Positions 15,492-46,984 of a stretch of 46,984 nt of DNA are shown here, piece after piece (the stretch's first letter is position 1; every line of letters begins with the position of its first letter). Origin of the DNA: a virus. The notes below the pieces were generated by a model, which searched no databases, was not told the DNA's origin, and saw nothing but the letters and a program-made list of their open reading frames with translations. A program made the translations under genes and the position numbers. The stretch lies in UHGV virus genome UHGV-0142121. One strand, 5' to 3'.

Positions 15492-15551
15492 AGATCCCCT
15501 TTCTCTATTTACACTGTATAAATAAACAGTATCATCAAGGAAAGGGGATCT
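15492..15551 (+). promoter_or_regulatory. 12-bp inverted repeat (AGATCCCCTTTC / GAAAGGGGATCT) whose 3' arm is the ribosome-binding site of the downstream gene; 36-nt loop carries a LexA box
   Basis: Perfect 12-bp complementarity; 3' arm ends 2 nt before GTG 15554. Confidence 0.5.
15512..15531. promoter_or_regulatory. LexA (SOS) box CACTGTATAAATAAACAGTA
   Basis: CTGT-N8-ACAG with AT-rich spacer, 17/20 to consensus TACTGTATATATATACAGTA; close to my recollection of the E. coli dinI box; overlaps a TATAAA -10-like element. Confidence 0.6.
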
Positions 15552-18814: not shown

Positions 18815-19059
18815 AGATGAACGGCAAAAGCGCATTGATTATGCGCGCGACAACCCTGCTGATTATCTGCGTAAGTTTGGGCGCGTGCGGGAACTCGGCT
18901 CAGCTGGTACCGACAATGAAACCGGCACCGTGCGCAGCGGAAAAACCGACGATTGATGTTGCTCATGTGGATGGCTATTTCGTCATCCCGGAGAGCGATA
19001 TGGGGAAGTTAACCGGATATATGGCCGCGCTGGAAGCGGGCTGTATCCCGCCGAAGTAG
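18811..19059 (+). CDS. Lipoprotein, 82 aa (possible o-spanin)
   Basis: Signal peptide with lipobox LGAC; overlaps the stop of the upstream membrane protein. Confidence 0.4.
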   Translation: MKMNGKSALIMRATTLLIICVSLGACGNSAQLVPTMKPAPCAAEKPTIDVAHVDGYFVIPESDMGKLTGYMAALEAGCIPPK

Positions 19060-19066
19060 AGGGAAT

Positions 19067-19333
19067 ATGGCGCTCTTTAAAAGAATGACGAAAGCCGAGA
19101 TACGCCGCCAGTTCACGCATTATGGATTGTTCTGGGGGTGTGTTCCGGTCTACGTCAACATGCGTAACGATGAATGCCCGGATGTGGCCACGCGGAATTG
19201 GGTGCCGGAATGGACACTGGATGCTGCCGATTGGCTATCGGGTATCCCGATTTGGTTCATGACACTGATTAACCCGTATTACGAACCGATGTTTGCCATC
19301 AAATTAACGGCACTGATTGAGGATGACGAATGA
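19067..19333 (+). CDS. Hypothetical protein, 88 aa
   Basis: ORF with ribosome-binding site GAGGGAA; ATGA overlap with the next gene. Confidence 0.4.
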   Translation: MALFKRMTKAEIRRQFTHYGLFWGCVPVYVNMRNDECPDVATRNWVPEWTLDAADWLSGIPIWFMTLINPYYEPMFAIKLTALIEDDE

Positions 19334-19644
19334 AAGTCTACATCGCTGGCCCCATGACAGGCCGTGAGAATTTCAACCGCGAGGCGTTCAACAAAGAAGC
19401 TGAGCGGCTGGCTAAACATGGACATATCGTACTGAACCCCGCCACATTGCCGGCAGGCATGGAGCCGCGCGAGTACATGGATATCTGTTTTGCGATGCTG
19501 CGCTGTGCGGATGCCATGTTGATGCTGCCAGGCTGGCAGGCGTCATCCGGCGCGACCGCTGAGTACCACTACGCGTACAAAATGGATCTGCCGGTCTACA
19601 GCACACTGCATTACCCACCGGTGGCCAGCGAACAGGCTGACTGA
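19330..19644 (+). CDS. DUF4406 / nucleoside 2-deoxyribosyltransferase-like protein, 104 aa
   Basis: N-terminus MKVYIAGPMTG...NPA fits the family signature as I recall it. Confidence 0.5.
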   Translation: MKVYIAGPMTGRENFNREAFNKEAERLAKHGHIVLNPATLPAGMEPREYMDICFAMLRCADAMLMLPGWQASSGATAEYHYAYKMDLPVYSTLHYPPVASEQAD

Positions 19645-19662
19645 TTGGGACCATGGTCCCAA
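19645..19662. repeat. sopC-like palindrome TTGGGACCATGGTCCCAA (perfect)
   Basis: Starts at the base after the upstream stop codon; followed by an intrinsic terminator. Confidence 0.75.
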
Positions 19663-19669
19663 TGAAATG

Positions 19670-19692
19670 AACCACCTTCGGGTGGTTTTTTT
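19670..19692 (+). terminator. Intrinsic terminator closing the lysis operon
   Basis: Stem AACCACC/GGTGGTT with TTCG loop, then TTTTTTT. Confidence 0.65.
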
Positions 19693-19804
19693 ATGCGCAT
19701 CGCACGCGCACATCAAAGAGAGTCTTTCAGTAGTGAGCCTGGGTAATCCGTTAACTCTTGGCGGCTTTGCCGTGCGACAGGCTCACGTCTAAAAGGAAAT
19801 AGCT

Positions 19805-19978
19805 ATGCAATTCGGTAAAAAATCAAAGTCAGGTTTGAGGGCGTTTATTCGCAATGACGGGATAATCATCAGCGATAAAAAGGGAAATGCCCGCATCGTT
19901 ATCGGTGTACTCGGTGATGATAAACATGTCTTACGCAGTGGTCGTCCTTCTACCTTCAACCAGTTAGGCCGCGCTTGA
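19805..19978 (+). CDS. Small hypothetical protein, 57 aa, basic
   Basis: AGGA ribosome-binding site 7 nt upstream; ends 12 nt before the next gene; below the track cutoff. Confidence 0.4.
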   Translation: MQFGKKSKSGLRAFIRNDGIIISDKKGNARIVIGVLGDDKHVLRSGRPSTFNQLGRA

Positions 19979-19990
19979 AAGGAGTAAATA

Positions 19991-20842
19991 ATGGCTGAGA
20001 AAATTATTGCCGATGTACTCGATACTGCTCTGGCTCGACATTACGAGCAACTTGGCGATGCAGAACGTGAAAAACAGGCGGTGGTCTTTATGGATGGTCG
20101 CTGGGTGGCCATCCGCGGGGATTTTACCCCTGATGAAATTCGTGAAGCTGTGGAATACATCCATCGCTACCGTGTATCGAAAAAGCTCCAGAAATCGCTG
20201 GAAGATATCTCACCATTTGTTGTTGATAACGGTGAGGTATTCATCAAGGACGCATTTATTTCGGAAACTATCCACGCGGCAGAAACGCTGAAGCCGAAGA
20301 ACAGTAATAGCAACATAGATGTAGGTAAGATTCTTGACGATGCATGGAAAAGTGGTCGCCCATGTATCGGGGAGGCTGTGAACAATCTGGCTCAGGTTAT
20401 AGCAAGTGCCCGAGTATCCTCTCAAATCTTTAAGCAACATACGAGCTGCGGTGAGATAACGCCATTAACCTATACAGCATCTATGAGCATTAACGTAAAC
20501 GATGCCCCGTCCGCATCTGGTGCCGATAGTAACATTGATGGCATTTCATTTGAGGTGAGCGATAAGGACATGGTTGTCAATCTGGCTGGCGGTGGGCGAA
20601 TCGTCATCAGTAATTGGGGTGATAGCAGCACCATGGTATCGAAAGCATTACCACCACTTGCACATACAGCATCATTGGGTCTTTCCTGCCACGATATTGC
20701 GAAAGAAACATTATCAGCAGTGCTCGCCGCTACTCTCCCCAACGTACCAAGGGGTCGAACCGAAGAAGCGGCTATTGCCCTGGCTCGTGCGGTACGATCT
20801 GCTTTCAACGCGCTGGGAAACGATAATGCCAGCCCGCGCTAA
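19991..20842 (+). CDS. Hypothetical protein, 283 aa
   Basis: Strong AGGAG ribosome-binding site; no recognisable motif. Confidence 0.5.
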   Translation: MAEKIIADVLDTALARHYEQLGDAEREKQAVVFMDGRWVAIRGDFTPDEIREAVEYIHRYRVSKKLQKSLEDISPFVVDNGEVFIKDAFISETIHAAETLKPKNSNSNIDVGKILDDAWKSGRPCIGEAVNNLAQVIASARVSSQIFKQHTSCGEITPLTYTASMSINVNDAPSASGADSNIDGISFEVSDKDMVVNLAGGGRIVISNWGDSSTMVSKALPPLAHTASLGLSCHDIAKETLSAVLAATLPNVPRGRTEEAAIALARAVRSAFNALGNDNASPR

Positions 20843-21188
20843 GCGCCCTTGTAAGCACAAAGGATGCTCTACCGCCACTAACGACCCATCAGGATATTGC
20901 GATAGCCATCGCCAGCAGCACGCCGGTGATGGCTGGCGTAATTACCAGCCAGGGAAGAGCCGACAGGATCGCGGGTATGGAAGACCATGGGAGATACGCC
21001 GCGCTCGCATTCTGATGCGGGATAAATATCTCTGCCAGGACTGCCGGCGCCGGGGCATAGGCATGAAAGCTGAAAGTGTGGATCACATCATCCCGAAAGC
21101 CCATGGCGGCACCGATGACGATAGCAACCTCGAATCGTTGTGCTGGCCATGCCACCGCCGGAAGACAGCTAAGGAACGATTTAACTGA
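20826..21188 (+). CDS. HNH endonuclease, 120 aa
   Basis: Cys-rich zinc pattern plus DHIIPKAHGGTDD..NL..LCWPCH; start moved to ATG 20826; packaging-associated HNH by position. Confidence 0.7.
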   Translation: MPARAKRPCKHKGCSTATNDPSGYCDSHRQQHAGDGWRNYQPGKSRQDRGYGRPWEIRRARILMRDKYLCQDCRRRGIGMKAESVDHIIPKAHGGTDDDSNLESLCWPCHRRKTAKERFN

Positions 21189-21388
21189 TGGCATACATCC
21201 GTTGTACTTACTGCGGCTCGCAGCTGCATACCGTAGCGAACTGCCCTAAAACGTGGGGCGGTTCATCCCGCCGTGCCAACTTGCGCTGCGGCTATTGTGG
21301 ACAGTCAGGACATAACTCTAATGCCTGCCCACACAATGCGAGCAGCGGTCGCCGTCGTCAGTTGAACGAAAACTTTTATCTGGACTAA
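21188..21388 (+). CDS. Small zinc-finger protein, 66 aa
   Basis: Cys pairs CTYCG, CPK, CGYCG and a terminal Cys-Pro-His; ATGA coupling. Confidence 0.4.
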   Translation: MAYIRCTYCGSQLHTVANCPKTWGGSSRRANLRCGYCGQSGHNSNACPHNASSGRRRQLNENFYLD

Positions 21389-21392
21389 TGAG

Positions 21393-21779
21393 GTGATCAT
21401 GCTGGATTTAAATCCTCCAACAACTCCTGAAGAAAGTGCGGAGCATGGGCGCTTATACGCTGCATATATTGAATCCCTTGCCAGGACAAAACATCTGGCT
21501 TGCCAGAGGCTGTCGCTCAACGATAAAGAATATCCAGAATGGTTTGTTCTTTGGTTAGACGATGAAATTGCGCGTATTCGTTTTAAGTTAGAGGCGTTGA
21601 AATCCTGGAATAGACGAACTAATCCCGAAACTGCTGCAAATAAGGTTAGAAATATGATTTGGCAGGTTGATTACATGATGCGCGTAGCGACAGGGAAAGT
21701 GTTGCCTTGTCCTGTTAACCCTGAGTCAAATACTAACTGGCTTAACTATATGTCTACTACCAATGCACAGCCTGAATGA
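21393..21779 (+). CDS. Hypothetical protein, 128 aa, AT-richer than flanks
   Basis: ORF between HNH and cos; no motif. Confidence 0.45.
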   Translation: MIMLDLNPPTTPEESAEHGRLYAAYIESLARTKHLACQRLSLNDKEYPEWFVLWLDDEIARIRFKLEALKSWNRRTNPETAANKVRNMIWQVDYMMRVATGKVLPCPVNPESNTNWLNYMSTTNAQPE

Positions 21780-21799
21780 CGACTTTACTCTCGACTGAA

Positions 21800-21990
21800 C
21801 CGGCACCACGATGGCGGCGGGGGGATTGATTTCATTATGAAATCATTCAATGTGAAATCACTTTCAATATCAATAATGAGAATCAATATCATTAGAAGGG
21901 GATAGGGGGGGGTAAAATCCCTAAACCCCCCCGCCGTTGAGGACTGCCGCTTCCAGTCGATTTTTACACGTGGGAAATAAGATCTTTTTT
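21800..21990. other. Putative cos packaging site region
   Basis: Non-coding stretch just upstream of terminase small subunit with GGCGGCGGGGGG (21813-21825), a G8...C7 symmetric element (21903-21932) and repeated (A/G)TGAAATCA motifs. Confidence 0.4.
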
Positions 21991-22042
21991 TTGGATGAAA
22001 TTACCGTAACAGAAAACGCAATTGATGCATGGAGGTGCGCAG

Positions 22043-22480
22043 ATGGCGATGGGTGTGCGATCTCCAGGCGGTGGCCGGAAACCGAATAATATCGGCACAC
22101 AAGTCAGTTCAGTAACACGCGCCGTTTCGCCGCCAGATGAATTGCTGGGTGATATGGCCATTGATGCCTGGAAACGAACCTGCCGGCTGATGATCGATCG
22201 TGGCAACTTCGAAATGGAAGACTGCTACTTGCTGATGGAGTACTGCAACACGGTGCAGCTGCTGTACGACGCTAATCAGGAAATCAAAGGAGACGGGATC
22301 GGTGATGCGACTGCTGCCGGCGGCCAGAAGCTGGGCGCCGCGGTGAAAGCGCGTGATAAGTACATTTCGCAGCTCATCAGGCTGAGCGTCGTTCTGAAAC
22401 TGGACCCGAACAGCCGGGTCAGAGTTGCTAATCCGGGGCAAGGTGGCAAAGAAGCGGGAAACGATTTCGACGATTTTTAA
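22043..22480 (+). CDS. Terminase small subunit, about 145 aa
   Basis: Position directly upstream of terminase large subunit; GGAGG before ATG 22043. Confidence 0.55.
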   Translation: MAMGVRSPGGGRKPNNIGTQVSSVTRAVSPPDELLGDMAIDAWKRTCRLMIDRGNFEMEDCYLLMEYCNTVQLLYDANQEIKGDGIGDATAAGGQKLGAAVKARDKYISQLIRLSVVLKLDPNSRVRVANPGQGGKEAGNDFDDF

Positions 22481-22498
22481 TTGGGACCACGGTCCCAT
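22481..22498. repeat. sopC-like palindrome TTGGGACCACGGTCCCAT at the terS/terL junction
   Basis: 16-mer TGGGACCACGGTCCCA starts at the base after the terS stop and precedes the terL ATG. Confidence 0.7.
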
Positions 22499-22507
22499 TT
22501 TTTATGG

Positions 22508-46930: not shown

Positions 46931-46984
46931 TAACAGAACACATTATTAAATATACGCGCGTATATTTAATAATGTGTTCTGTTA
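46931..46984. repeat. Hairpin telomere, right end: 54-nt perfect palindrome (apex between 46957 and 46958)
   Basis: Reverse complement of 46931-46957 equals 46958-46984; shares the 40-nt core with the left-end palindrome, outer 7 nt differ. Confidence 0.85.

Follow-up and report, generated by a model that had tools for sequence, protein, structure and literature searches.

In Salmonella infected with phage P22, an RNA of 89 nucleotides (nt), designated P22F, accumulates, which was validated by reverse transcription polymerase chain reaction, has no known function and ends 6 nt upstream of the rha start codon (PMC13397905). P22F was described as a cluster of reads, and its structure, the family to which it belongs and its 5' part, which comprises a hairpin (P0) and one strand of a pseudoknot, were not recognised; IsrK, an RNA of the Gifsy-1 prophage, was proposed as an analogy (PMC13397905). 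In phage phi80, orf63 and orf64 encode the tail-assembly defence and counter-defence pair TaiEcA/AtiEcA (Tai/Ati), which acts on the C-terminal part of J, the protein of the central tail fibre, and the single deletion of orf66 does not cause a drop in titre (PMC11364771). Here, we describe a unit of the virus genome UHGV-0142121, a stretch of 46,984 nt (hereafter the window) that is an N15/phiKO2-like linear-plasmid prophage. The unit consists of a leader and two open reading frames (ORFs), ORF57 and ORF283, whose products have 57 and 283 amino acids (aa), respectively. The leader is a structured, pseudoknotted RNA with the helices P0, P1, P2 and P3, and P22F is a member of the same RNA family. 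ORF283 is a mosaic member of the phi80 orf66 or 'N15 gp59-like' DUF1983 family. Taken together, it is rather probable that the unit represents an accessory cassette in the late operon of an N15-like linear-plasmid prophage, which would be gated by its leader and encode tail-fibre-like proteins.

When positions 19600-20900 of the window were compared with 50,697 phage records by megablast, only the non-coding stretch at about 19681-19801 was matched. This stretch is about 91% identical to the leader in mEp390, mEp237, mEp213, mEp043, HK639, phi80, SP-016 and other phages, in which it is almost everywhere unannotated. A more sensitive search uncovered copies of about 75% identity upstream of Rha and KilA-N genes, for instance in HK620, HK106 and CobraSix. 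The homology begins right after the T-run of the terminator and ends at the Shine-Dalgarno sequence, and the flanking sequences are unrelated. A pattern derived from the leader gave 205 matches in the DNA that was fetched; a strict version of it hit more than 120 IMG/VR contigs among the matches listed and 56 species-representative genomes, all of which belong to the Enterobacterales except two metagenome-assembled genomes. The leader is also present in 108 of 5,426 complete E. coli genomes (megablast), including those of DH5alpha derivatives and of Nissle 1917, with nothing annotated under the match. Rfam 15 contains no model that matches anywhere in the window, and nothing relevant was detected at E-values of up to 10; three other subtypes have no match in Rfam either. 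The sole published trace of the family is the uncharacterised small RNA of P22. In a few public records, ORFs or their starts lie inside the leader (L003 1005-1559, phi80 rha; L004 2010-2126, CharmingMan CDS0005; L003 2495-2794, PHI80_65 on the minus strand), which are likely mis-annotated starts or spurious ORFs.

The fold of the leader is shown by covariation. In a MAFFT alignment of 59 distinct copies made without fitting to a structure (A4), changes on both sides of a pair are seen in 57 cells, compared with 24.4±3.2 in shuffled alignments, a count that none of 500 shuffles reached, and four pairs of P3 change on both sides. The covariance model (CM) R1 was built from A4. In the CM alignment A5, 17 pairs change on both sides (versus 7.1±1.2), and in A7, a CM alignment of 28 sequences that includes divergent copies, this applies to 24 of the 31 pairs (8.5±1.9 in shuffles; none of 500 reached it). 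When the 3' partner was slid by one to three columns in A7, only 4-7 pairs changed on both sides. The changes in A7 are distributed over P0 (5 of 5 pairs), P2 (7 of 9) and P3 (8 of 10). CM alignments are fitted to the structure of the model and their counts lean towards it, for which reason the unfitted A4 serves as the independent check. P2 is nearly invariant in the main subtypes and is compensated in divergent copies, for instance by AGCCUUUG/CAAAGGUU and UGACCCUUG/CAAGGUUCA. Moreover, many G·U pairs fit the plus strand only, which is always the strand of the following gene. Several unpaired nucleotides, namely the GUGCGA bulge and GGCGG, are invariant in the family. In the window, the minimum free energy (MFE) fold reproduces P0, P1, P2 and P3, and the match to R1, in whose seed alignment the window copy was included, spans all 118 model positions, whereas the reverse strand scores only 21 bits.

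The apical loop of P3 holds the 3' strand of the pseudoknot, which pairs with a linker between P0 and P1. The two strands co-vary between copies (GAAAG/CUUUC, CGAGAG/CUCUCG, CGAUA/UAUCG, CGAAAG/CUUUCG, CCCGAG/CUCGGG, CCAAGA/UCUUGG, CUCAGA/UCUGAG, CCUGCAGA/UCUGCAGG and, in P22, CCACCGA/UCGGUGG). When the partners of 48 distinct linker/loop pairs were permuted, the summed length of the Watson-Crick helices was 194.9±6.1 compared with 250 for the true partners, a value that none of 2000 permutations reached. A test for the longest helix that also allows G·U pairs does not discriminate (5.8 versus 5.2) because the tracts are rich in purines and pyrimidines, respectively. Thus, the pseudoknot is well supported, albeit less formally established than P0-P3.

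The first-pass annotation of the window had noted a terminator after the lysis block, a leader with a perfect 9-bp inverted repeat and a 36-nt spacer, a 57-aa ORF with a ribosome-binding site and, 12 nt further downstream, a 283-aa ORF behind a strong AGGAG site, and all of these were found in place (Table 1). The repeat corresponds to the two arms of P2 and extends to 18 nt at 83% complementarity (19724-19741/19778-19795). By its length alone it is unexceptional, as 74 inverted repeats with arms of 9 nt or more, no further than 60 nt apart, occur in the window; the repeat is considered real because it is conserved and co-varies in other phages. The leader is more than a hairpin, namely a conserved RNA with several helices. 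Likewise, the loop size of 36 nt, which had been compared with that of an SOS hairpin at 15492, is a coincidence, since the spacer varies from about 30 to 58 nt in the family and is itself structured by P3 and a pseudoknot strand. The hairpin in question (15492-15551) has arms of 29 nt with 76% complementarity and, as judged by eye, a LexA-box-like CTGT-N8-ACAG sequence. In view of these features and of the lack of an R1 match there, a link between the two was rejected.

Table 1 Features of the leader-ORF57-ORF283 unit and its immediate neighbours (positions refer to the window)
Feature	Position	Strand	Details
Intrinsic terminator closing the lysis/DUF4406 block	19669..19693	+	GC-rich stem 19669-19688 and T-run to 19692; terminator scan
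Structured leader RNA, P22F-like family (model R1)	19689..19806	+	126.7 bits, E ~1e-29 (cmsearch; window copy in seed); sole copy in the window
P0	19694..19710	+	UGCGC (19694-19698), loop AUCGCAC, GCGCA (19706-19710); in MFE fold
Pseudoknot 5' strand	19716..19722	+	AAGAGAG; AAGAG (19716-19720) pairs with CUCUU (19755-19759)
P1 5' strand, anti-Shine-Dalgarno	19723..19730	+	UCUUUCAG; pairs with 19789-19796 in MFE fold
Inverted repeat	19733-19741/19778-19786	+	GTGAGCCTG/CAGGCTCAC; perfect 9 bp, 36-nt spacer
P2 5' arm	19733..19741	+	GUGAGCCUG; left repeat of the first-pass annotation
P3	19742..19771	+	GGUAA (19742-19746)/UUGCC (19767-19771); inner CCG/CGG
P2 3' arm	19778..19786	+	CAGGCUCAC; right repeat of the first-pass annotation
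P1 3' strand	19789..19797	+	CUAAAAGG; overlaps the Shine-Dalgarno sequence AAGGA of ORF57
ORF57	19805..19978	+	AAGGA at 19793-19797, ATG 7 nt later
Intergenic gap ORF57/ORF283	19979-19990		12 nt
ORF283	19991..20842	+	AGGAG at 19980-19984
ORF283 N-module (aa 1-73)	19991-20209		Recurs in CharmingMan, Fostie and SP-016 proteins, also behind the leader
ORF283 J-type tail-tip motif (aa 74-90)	20210-20278		SPFVVDNGEVFIKDAFI; positions are those of the matched stretch aa 74-96
ORF283 rare C-module (aa 130-283)	20378-20839
HNH endonuclease (HK97 gp74-like packaging accessory)	20826..21188	+	Pfam HNH E=1.9e-15; PHROG 144

A mode of action for the leader is suggested by its position relative to the following gene. 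Late, antiterminated RNA polymerase would read through the terminator at 19669-19693 into the cassette and further into the HNH, terS and terL genes. The first 112 nt or so of the leader fold into the 5' hairpin P0, followed by the long stem P1-P2-P3, and the pseudoknot ties the linker rich in purines directly upstream of P1 to the apical loop of P3. In P1, the 3' strand is the Shine-Dalgarno sequence of the first gene, and its partner is a nearly invariant CUUUCAG. In the MFE fold of the window copy, P1 is formed by UCUUU.AG and CU.AAAGG, of which the latter is the Shine-Dalgarno sequence of ORF57. The Shine-Dalgarno sequence is paired to the CUUUCAG strand in the MFE fold of 129 out of 167 distinct contexts, whatever gene follows, its mean predicted probability of being unpaired across the family is 0.26, and it lies 6-10 nt from the start codon. 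As the Shine-Dalgarno sequence is located inside P1, the folded leader should gate or throttle the translation of ORF57, an effect that P1 would exert by occluding the ribosome-binding site. Probably, it stabilises the processed mRNA as well by providing a stable structure at its 5' end. The genes behind the leader are diverse: the first ORF encodes a gp59-like protein or ORF57 in 98 cases, Rha in 46, a glycosyltransferase in 16, a KilA-N protein in 10 and assorted other proteins, including HNH endonucleases, in the remaining ones. Since such unrelated cargo is headed by the same leader in many temperate phages of the Enterobacterales, the leader behaves like a portable module for the expression of accessory genes of the late operon. 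Directly upstream of the leader, 144 out of 182 distinct contexts have a hairpin with a T-run that resembles a terminator.

Some phages have two copies of the leader that belong to different subtypes and head different accessory genes, namely phi80, HK639, SP-016 and the phages of loci L028, L071, L089, L113, L115, L129, L168 and L180. In phi80 (L003), the copies are located at 907-1040 and 2501-2618, one upstream of rha and the other upstream of orf66. R1 also detects divergent second copies in other phages.

The leader that contains P22F resembles the window leader in its location after the Rz terminator and directly upstream of the first accessory gene (rha), as well as in its helices P1-P2-P3 and its pseudoknot. 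The subtype of P22 is divergent, with GGCCUUUG/CAAAGGUU as P2. P22F lies inside a match to R1 (35.9 bits, E=2.3e-8), which also holds P0 and the 5' strand of the pseudoknot, and the 5' end of P22F falls within the 5' strand of P1. Leaders of the P22F subtype occur in 67 phage records, mostly upstream of rha, including 11 Stx1- or Stx2-converting phages and Shigella phages. IsrK shares with the leader that it is a prophage RNA encoded just upstream of accessory genes on the same strand. However, isrK is among the Rfam families without a match to the leader at E-values of up to 10, and IsrK acts in trans on a longer isoform, whereas nothing of that kind is indicated for the window leader. The RNA thermometers of the fourU and ROSE types and the RNase III-processed N leader of phage lambda, which is likewise a cis-acting element in the 5' untranslated region of a phage transcript, also oppose a U-rich strand to the Shine-Dalgarno sequence via weak A-U and G·U pairs. 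In contrast to these elements, the window leader is much larger and pseudoknotted, has strongly conserved helices and matches no Rfam model.

The likeness to thermometers leads to the alternative that survives best, according to which the leader responds to a signal, be it as a riboswitch, a thermometer or a protein-binding operator with P1 and the Shine-Dalgarno sequence as the expression platform, or is a self-cleaving or trans-acting RNA. An elaborate, pseudoknotted and covarying fold with invariant unpaired nucleotides would fit such a role, as would the weak P1, which is rich in U·G and A-U pairs like the stems of fourU-type thermometers, and the accumulation in vivo of the discrete 89-nt P22F, whose 5' end lies inside P1. 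A covarying fold with the Shine-Dalgarno sequence in P1, as expected of a riboswitch, is indeed seen, a feature that is necessary but not specific. However, the genes behind the leader differ in their functions, which sets them apart from the coherent regulons that metabolite riboswitches control, no ribozyme or riboswitch model of Rfam matches, and neither a ligand nor a binding protein is suggested by the data. We therefore regard a signal-responsive leader as possible, though on the unlikely side. In its broadest and equally tentative form, the leader would represent a new class of regulatory RNA, a pseudoknotted sensor that makes any late-operon accessory gene conditional on a signal of the host or the infection, and the gp59-like proteins, which are most often under its control, could be tail-fibre mimics that counteract defences against the central tail fibre. 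Such a sensor may be a riboswitch, a thermometer, a protein-operated switch or a self-processing RNA that is used as a portable 'plug' by temperate phages of the Enterobacterales.

As regards the proteins of the cassette, a hypothetical protein of Citrobacter freundii shows 100% identity to ORF283. The first-pass annotation had regarded the protein pair as unknown and without recognisable motif and had suggested profile searches. Indeed, Pfam, PHROGs, PADLOC and NCBIfam contain nothing significant for ORF57 or ORF283, whereas a large protein collection revealed 87 relatives of ORF283, many of which are labelled DUF1983 or 'phage tail tip fiber protein'. Moreover, ORF283 does carry a tail-tip motif, which is detected by PF09327 with 17.6 bits (E=0.0034, profile positions 71-94 of 139), a score below the gathering cut-off of 22 bits. 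By tblastn, ORF283 matches CharmingMan (1e-19), Fostie (5e-13) and the 'gp59' of SP-016 (1e-11). The motif SPFxVxNGxVFIKDAFI is common to every member of the gp59/orf66 family. In an alignment of 45 sequences, F84 is the sole invariant column, and F76, G81, I85, A88 and I90 are nearly invariant. The core of the motif, NGxVFIKDAFI, is shared by ORF283, phi80 orf66 (ORF x171.28), HK639 gp13, mEp237 gp62 and the gp59-like protein of SP-016, which are, together with N15 gp59, among the closest known systems. Both the slot and the upstream leader are as at ORF283 in phi80, HK639, mEp237, SP-016, CharmingMan and Fostie. The N-terminal modules vary in the family, and one type corresponds to the FN3-like domain found before the motif in J. 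At the other end, ORF283 differs from its gp59-like relatives, as the usual coiled region ending in ...RPGGxI..R is replaced by a rare C-module, which has nine representatives among 1.84 billion proteins (phmmer). ORF283 thus lacks the C-terminal tail ...(R/K)PGGx(I/L)...R of the family and ends in ...RSAFNALGNDNASPR. The slot of ORF283 is exactly that of N15 gene 59, downstream of the DUF4406 gene and a terminator and upstream of the packaging end. Homology to conserved head-assembly or packaging accessory proteins of N15-like phages had been named beforehand as an argument against a cargo role. Such a relationship holds with respect to position and family, but not for the direct comparison of ORF283 with N15 gp59, which is not significant (BLASTP E=0.09). 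N15 has no R1 leader upstream of gene 59.

The motif connects the family with J, in which SPFxVxNGxVFIxxxFI opens the distal part of the protein (PF09327; PDB 25vf). The family profile matches the tail fibre of the F2 pyocin (PDB 25vf) at residues 1133-1170. Residues 74-209 of ORF283 align with residues 971-1071 of the J protein of the window, which are its last 100 residues (E=6e-5, a weak match from a single BLASTP comparison), and the alignment includes MVVNLAGGGRIVISNW versus LTVNLSGGGKVVVGRW. Similarly, phi80 orf66 matches phi80 J at 1063-1129 (E=3e-4, likewise weak and from a single comparison). Unlike J, ORF283 comprises 283 rather than about 1,100 aa, has no baseplate-hub part and is encoded far from the tail genes. 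As phi80 orf66 can be deleted without a drop in titre, the family is accessory. From these data we infer that ORF283 is a fibre-like paralogue of J's distal part that is dispensable and might serve as an accessory fibre, an assembly factor or a decoy. It would be a mosaic that combines the J-type fibre motif with exchangeable N- and C-modules, and most likely oligomerises into a fibre-like structure with a role at the tail tip, in assembly or host interaction. A search with the last 143 aa of the window J mostly returned fragments of J at contig ends. Two apparently free-standing J fragments, P0140 and P0157, were considered as gp59-like genes and rejected, as they are remnants in degraded tail regions.

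Among the roles named for ORF283, the decoy deserves separate consideration. ORF283 and the gp59-like proteins could be produced late as soluble decoys of the distal central tail fibre that soak up host or prophage defences directed against J, such as Tai or Bil. The shared J motif and the co-linear similarity of ORF283 to the end of its own J are consistent with this idea, and so is the fact that Tai targets J in its C-terminal region (PMC11364771). A ubiquitin-like conjugation system is reported to target the central tail fibre, too. Furthermore, the family adjoins tai/ati in phi80, and its extreme mosaicism is typical of genes in an arms race. However, Tai and Ati of phi80 are orf63 and orf64 and not orf66, and the deletion of orf66 had no phenotype against the phage's own TaiEcA, whereas the deletion of orf64 (AtiEcA) had one (PMC11364771). 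In addition, the similarity to J is confined to a short motif, and the C-module has no relatives in J. A decoy function is therefore doubtful.

Turning to the way in which the cassette is embedded, the first-pass annotation had proposed a moron, cargo or accessory module. What was borne out is an accessory module at the variable position that separates the lysis genes from the packaging genes; an autonomous moron was not supported. Such a moron would have its own promoter and be expressed from the prophage for the benefit of the lysogen, for instance in exclusion, defence or conversion. It is true that the slot is variable and that the cassette is present or absent between conserved neighbours. 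It occurs after lysis genes and in many unrelated phage backbones, including the tail cluster of HK639 and the head cluster of L017, and ORF57 is present or absent upstream of the same gene in related phages. Moreover, its neighbours in the slot of phi80 are the defence/counter-defence pair TaiEcA/AtiEcA. However, the leader has no sigma-70-like site (19694-19804; a consensus scan only, which a weak or non-sigma-70 promoter could escape). The sole sigma-70-like match in 19000-22500 lies at 19975-20004 (TTGAAA, 18 nt, GAAAAT, with TG), bridges the boundary between ORF57 and ORF283, and transcription from it would begin within ORF283; with one site found while 4.5 were expected, it probably matches by chance. 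By eye, no consensus site for integration host factor is visible in the leader. A terminator scan found none on the plus strand between 19694 and 21900, and the ATG of the HNH gene (20826) overlaps the stop codon of ORF283 by 17 nt. In a lysogen, the terminator directly upstream insulates the cassette, and neither ORF57 nor ORF283 has a match in PADLOC. The lack of a promoter-like site and of a terminator of its own, together with the overlap with the HNH gene, argues that the cassette is part of the late operon, which leaves an autonomous moron very unlikely. In summary, the data support an accessory, non-essential-looking cassette in a variable slot between the lysis and packaging genes.

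The leader could also be regarded as a 'linker' at the DNA level that mediates the exchange of cassettes by recombination and has no function as an RNA. The homology has sharp edges at the leader with unrelated flanks, and 91-97% identity between otherwise dissimilar phages suggests recent exchange. However, compensatory changes preserve four helices and the pseudoknot, the G·U pairs fit one strand only, and both the orientation and the spacing to the start codon (6-10 nt from the Shine-Dalgarno sequence) are fixed. A linker without RNA function is thus highly improbable, while roles in recombination and as an RNA are not mutually exclusive.

ORF57 is a small, basic, beta-rich protein encoded by a real, optional gene that is functionally tied to gp59-like proteins. 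It forms 27 protein clusters with 79-98% identity in prophages of Citrobacter and Salmonella, one of which occurs on 274 contigs. The gene is always located between the leader and a gp59-like gene, in backbones that differ in their packaging modules. Its pN/pS ratio is about 0.2-0.3 at pS values of 0.65-0.82, as estimated from three sequences. In the window, ORF57 and ORF283 share their reading frame, with TGA AAG GAG TAA ATA and thus two stop codons between them. The gap between ORF57 and the next gene varies from -4 to +16 nt with different frames, so that the shared frame in the window is incidental. In L038, ORF57 is fused in frame to a gp59-like protein (328 aa), whereas in L009-L011 the same MAEKII... 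gene as ORF283 directly follows the leader without ORF57. Since ORF57 is either a separate gene or the N-terminal domain of gp59-like proteins, it probably encodes a partner or adaptor of ORF283. That the two ORFs are halves of one decayed gene, as the common frame, the separation by only 12 nt with two stops and the fused version in L038 might suggest, is the least probable explanation, since 27 clusters and hundreds of contigs retain a separate stop of ORF57 with variable gaps and frames, the pN/pS ratio of ORF57 is low, and ORF283 is preceded by a strong AGGAG and begins with the MAEKII that is found directly behind the leader in L009-L011. ORF57 and ORF283 have similar ends of the type SxFNxLG (PSTFNQLGRA, 19949-19975, and RSAFNALGNDNASPR, 20798-20839). 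P0107 is a homologue of ORF57 that ends in ...FNQLGRRNASPR, as would result if recombination between the two motifs had removed ORF283.

Several observations weigh against a leader-gated late cassette encoding fibre-like proteins. The folding energy of the window copy is unremarkable (z = -1.4), and the structural evidence therefore comes from covariation. P1 is weak and contains U·G and A-U pairs as well as one C·A mismatch, and in the P22 subtype the Shine-Dalgarno sequence lies just 3' of P1 and not inside it, so that occlusion of the Shine-Dalgarno sequence is not universal. The count of pseudoknot pairs in fixed columns of the MAFFT alignment is blurred by a register shift of 1 nt of the purine and pyrimidine tracts between subtypes. 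As to the proteins, the similarity between ORF283 and J is weak beyond the short motif, and the phmmer search of the C-module against 1.84 billion representatives returned no J-like proteins. The AlphaFold2 model of ORF283 has low confidence, with a predicted local distance difference test score (pLDDT) of 55 and a predicted template modelling score (pTM) of 0.23; that of ORF57, with three to four strands in a small beta sheet, is of low confidence, too (pLDDT 62). The pN/pS ratio of ORF57 has the small sample given above. Finally, a scan of eight ORFs between 14080 and 19056 identified no antiterminator, so that the read-through of the terminator is an assumption modelled on lambdoid phages and N15.

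The leader is a common structured RNA that has been left unannotated in phi80, and hence in DH5alpha, in P22, HK620, HK106, HK639, the mEp phages and Stx-converting phages as well as in E. coli Nissle. It explains the origin of the P22 'sncRNA' P22F and forms the 5' boundary of the cargo slot that varies most in lambdoid and N15-like genomes. A covariance model of the family would delimit cargo cassettes in genome annotation. The leader also provides a handle on the expression of accessory genes, including the conditionally harmful rha, and may serve phage engineering as a natural insulator or as a part for translation control. The gp59 and ORF57 proteins, in turn, tie the slot to the central tail fibre, against which bacterial immunity is repeatedly directed. 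In L004, L005, L006, L015, L017 and L027, the leader/gp59-like unit is followed by a gene of about 485 aa with a glycosyltransferase annotation, and in L015 and L017 a further gene of about 200 aa is present. Fibre-like proteins and glycosylation may be functionally linked.

The remaining observations concern the surroundings of the unit. The window encodes a protelomerase (213-2114), and its termini (1-54 and 46931-46984) are perfect 27+27-nt palindromes of near-identical sequence (...CACATTATTAAATATACGC|GCGTATATTTAATAATGTG...). Together with the protelomerase gene, they look like the telomere (telRL-type) sequences of a linear plasmid prophage that were read through the hairpin ends. The head genes are only about 74% identical to those of phiKO2-like phages of Klebsiella. 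Upstream of the unit, an ORF of PHROG-6519 is followed by the DUF4406 gene (19330-19644), which is the counterpart of N15 gene 57; at the equivalent place, N15 has a terminator and then gene 59. Between the HNH and small terminase genes, an ORF of 128 aa (21393-21779) has no family match, and an ORF of 66 aa (21188-21388) contains two CxxC...H/C zinc-knuckle-like motifs with weak matches to zf-CCHC. Both ORFs occupy the position where cos or packaging accessory functions are expected.

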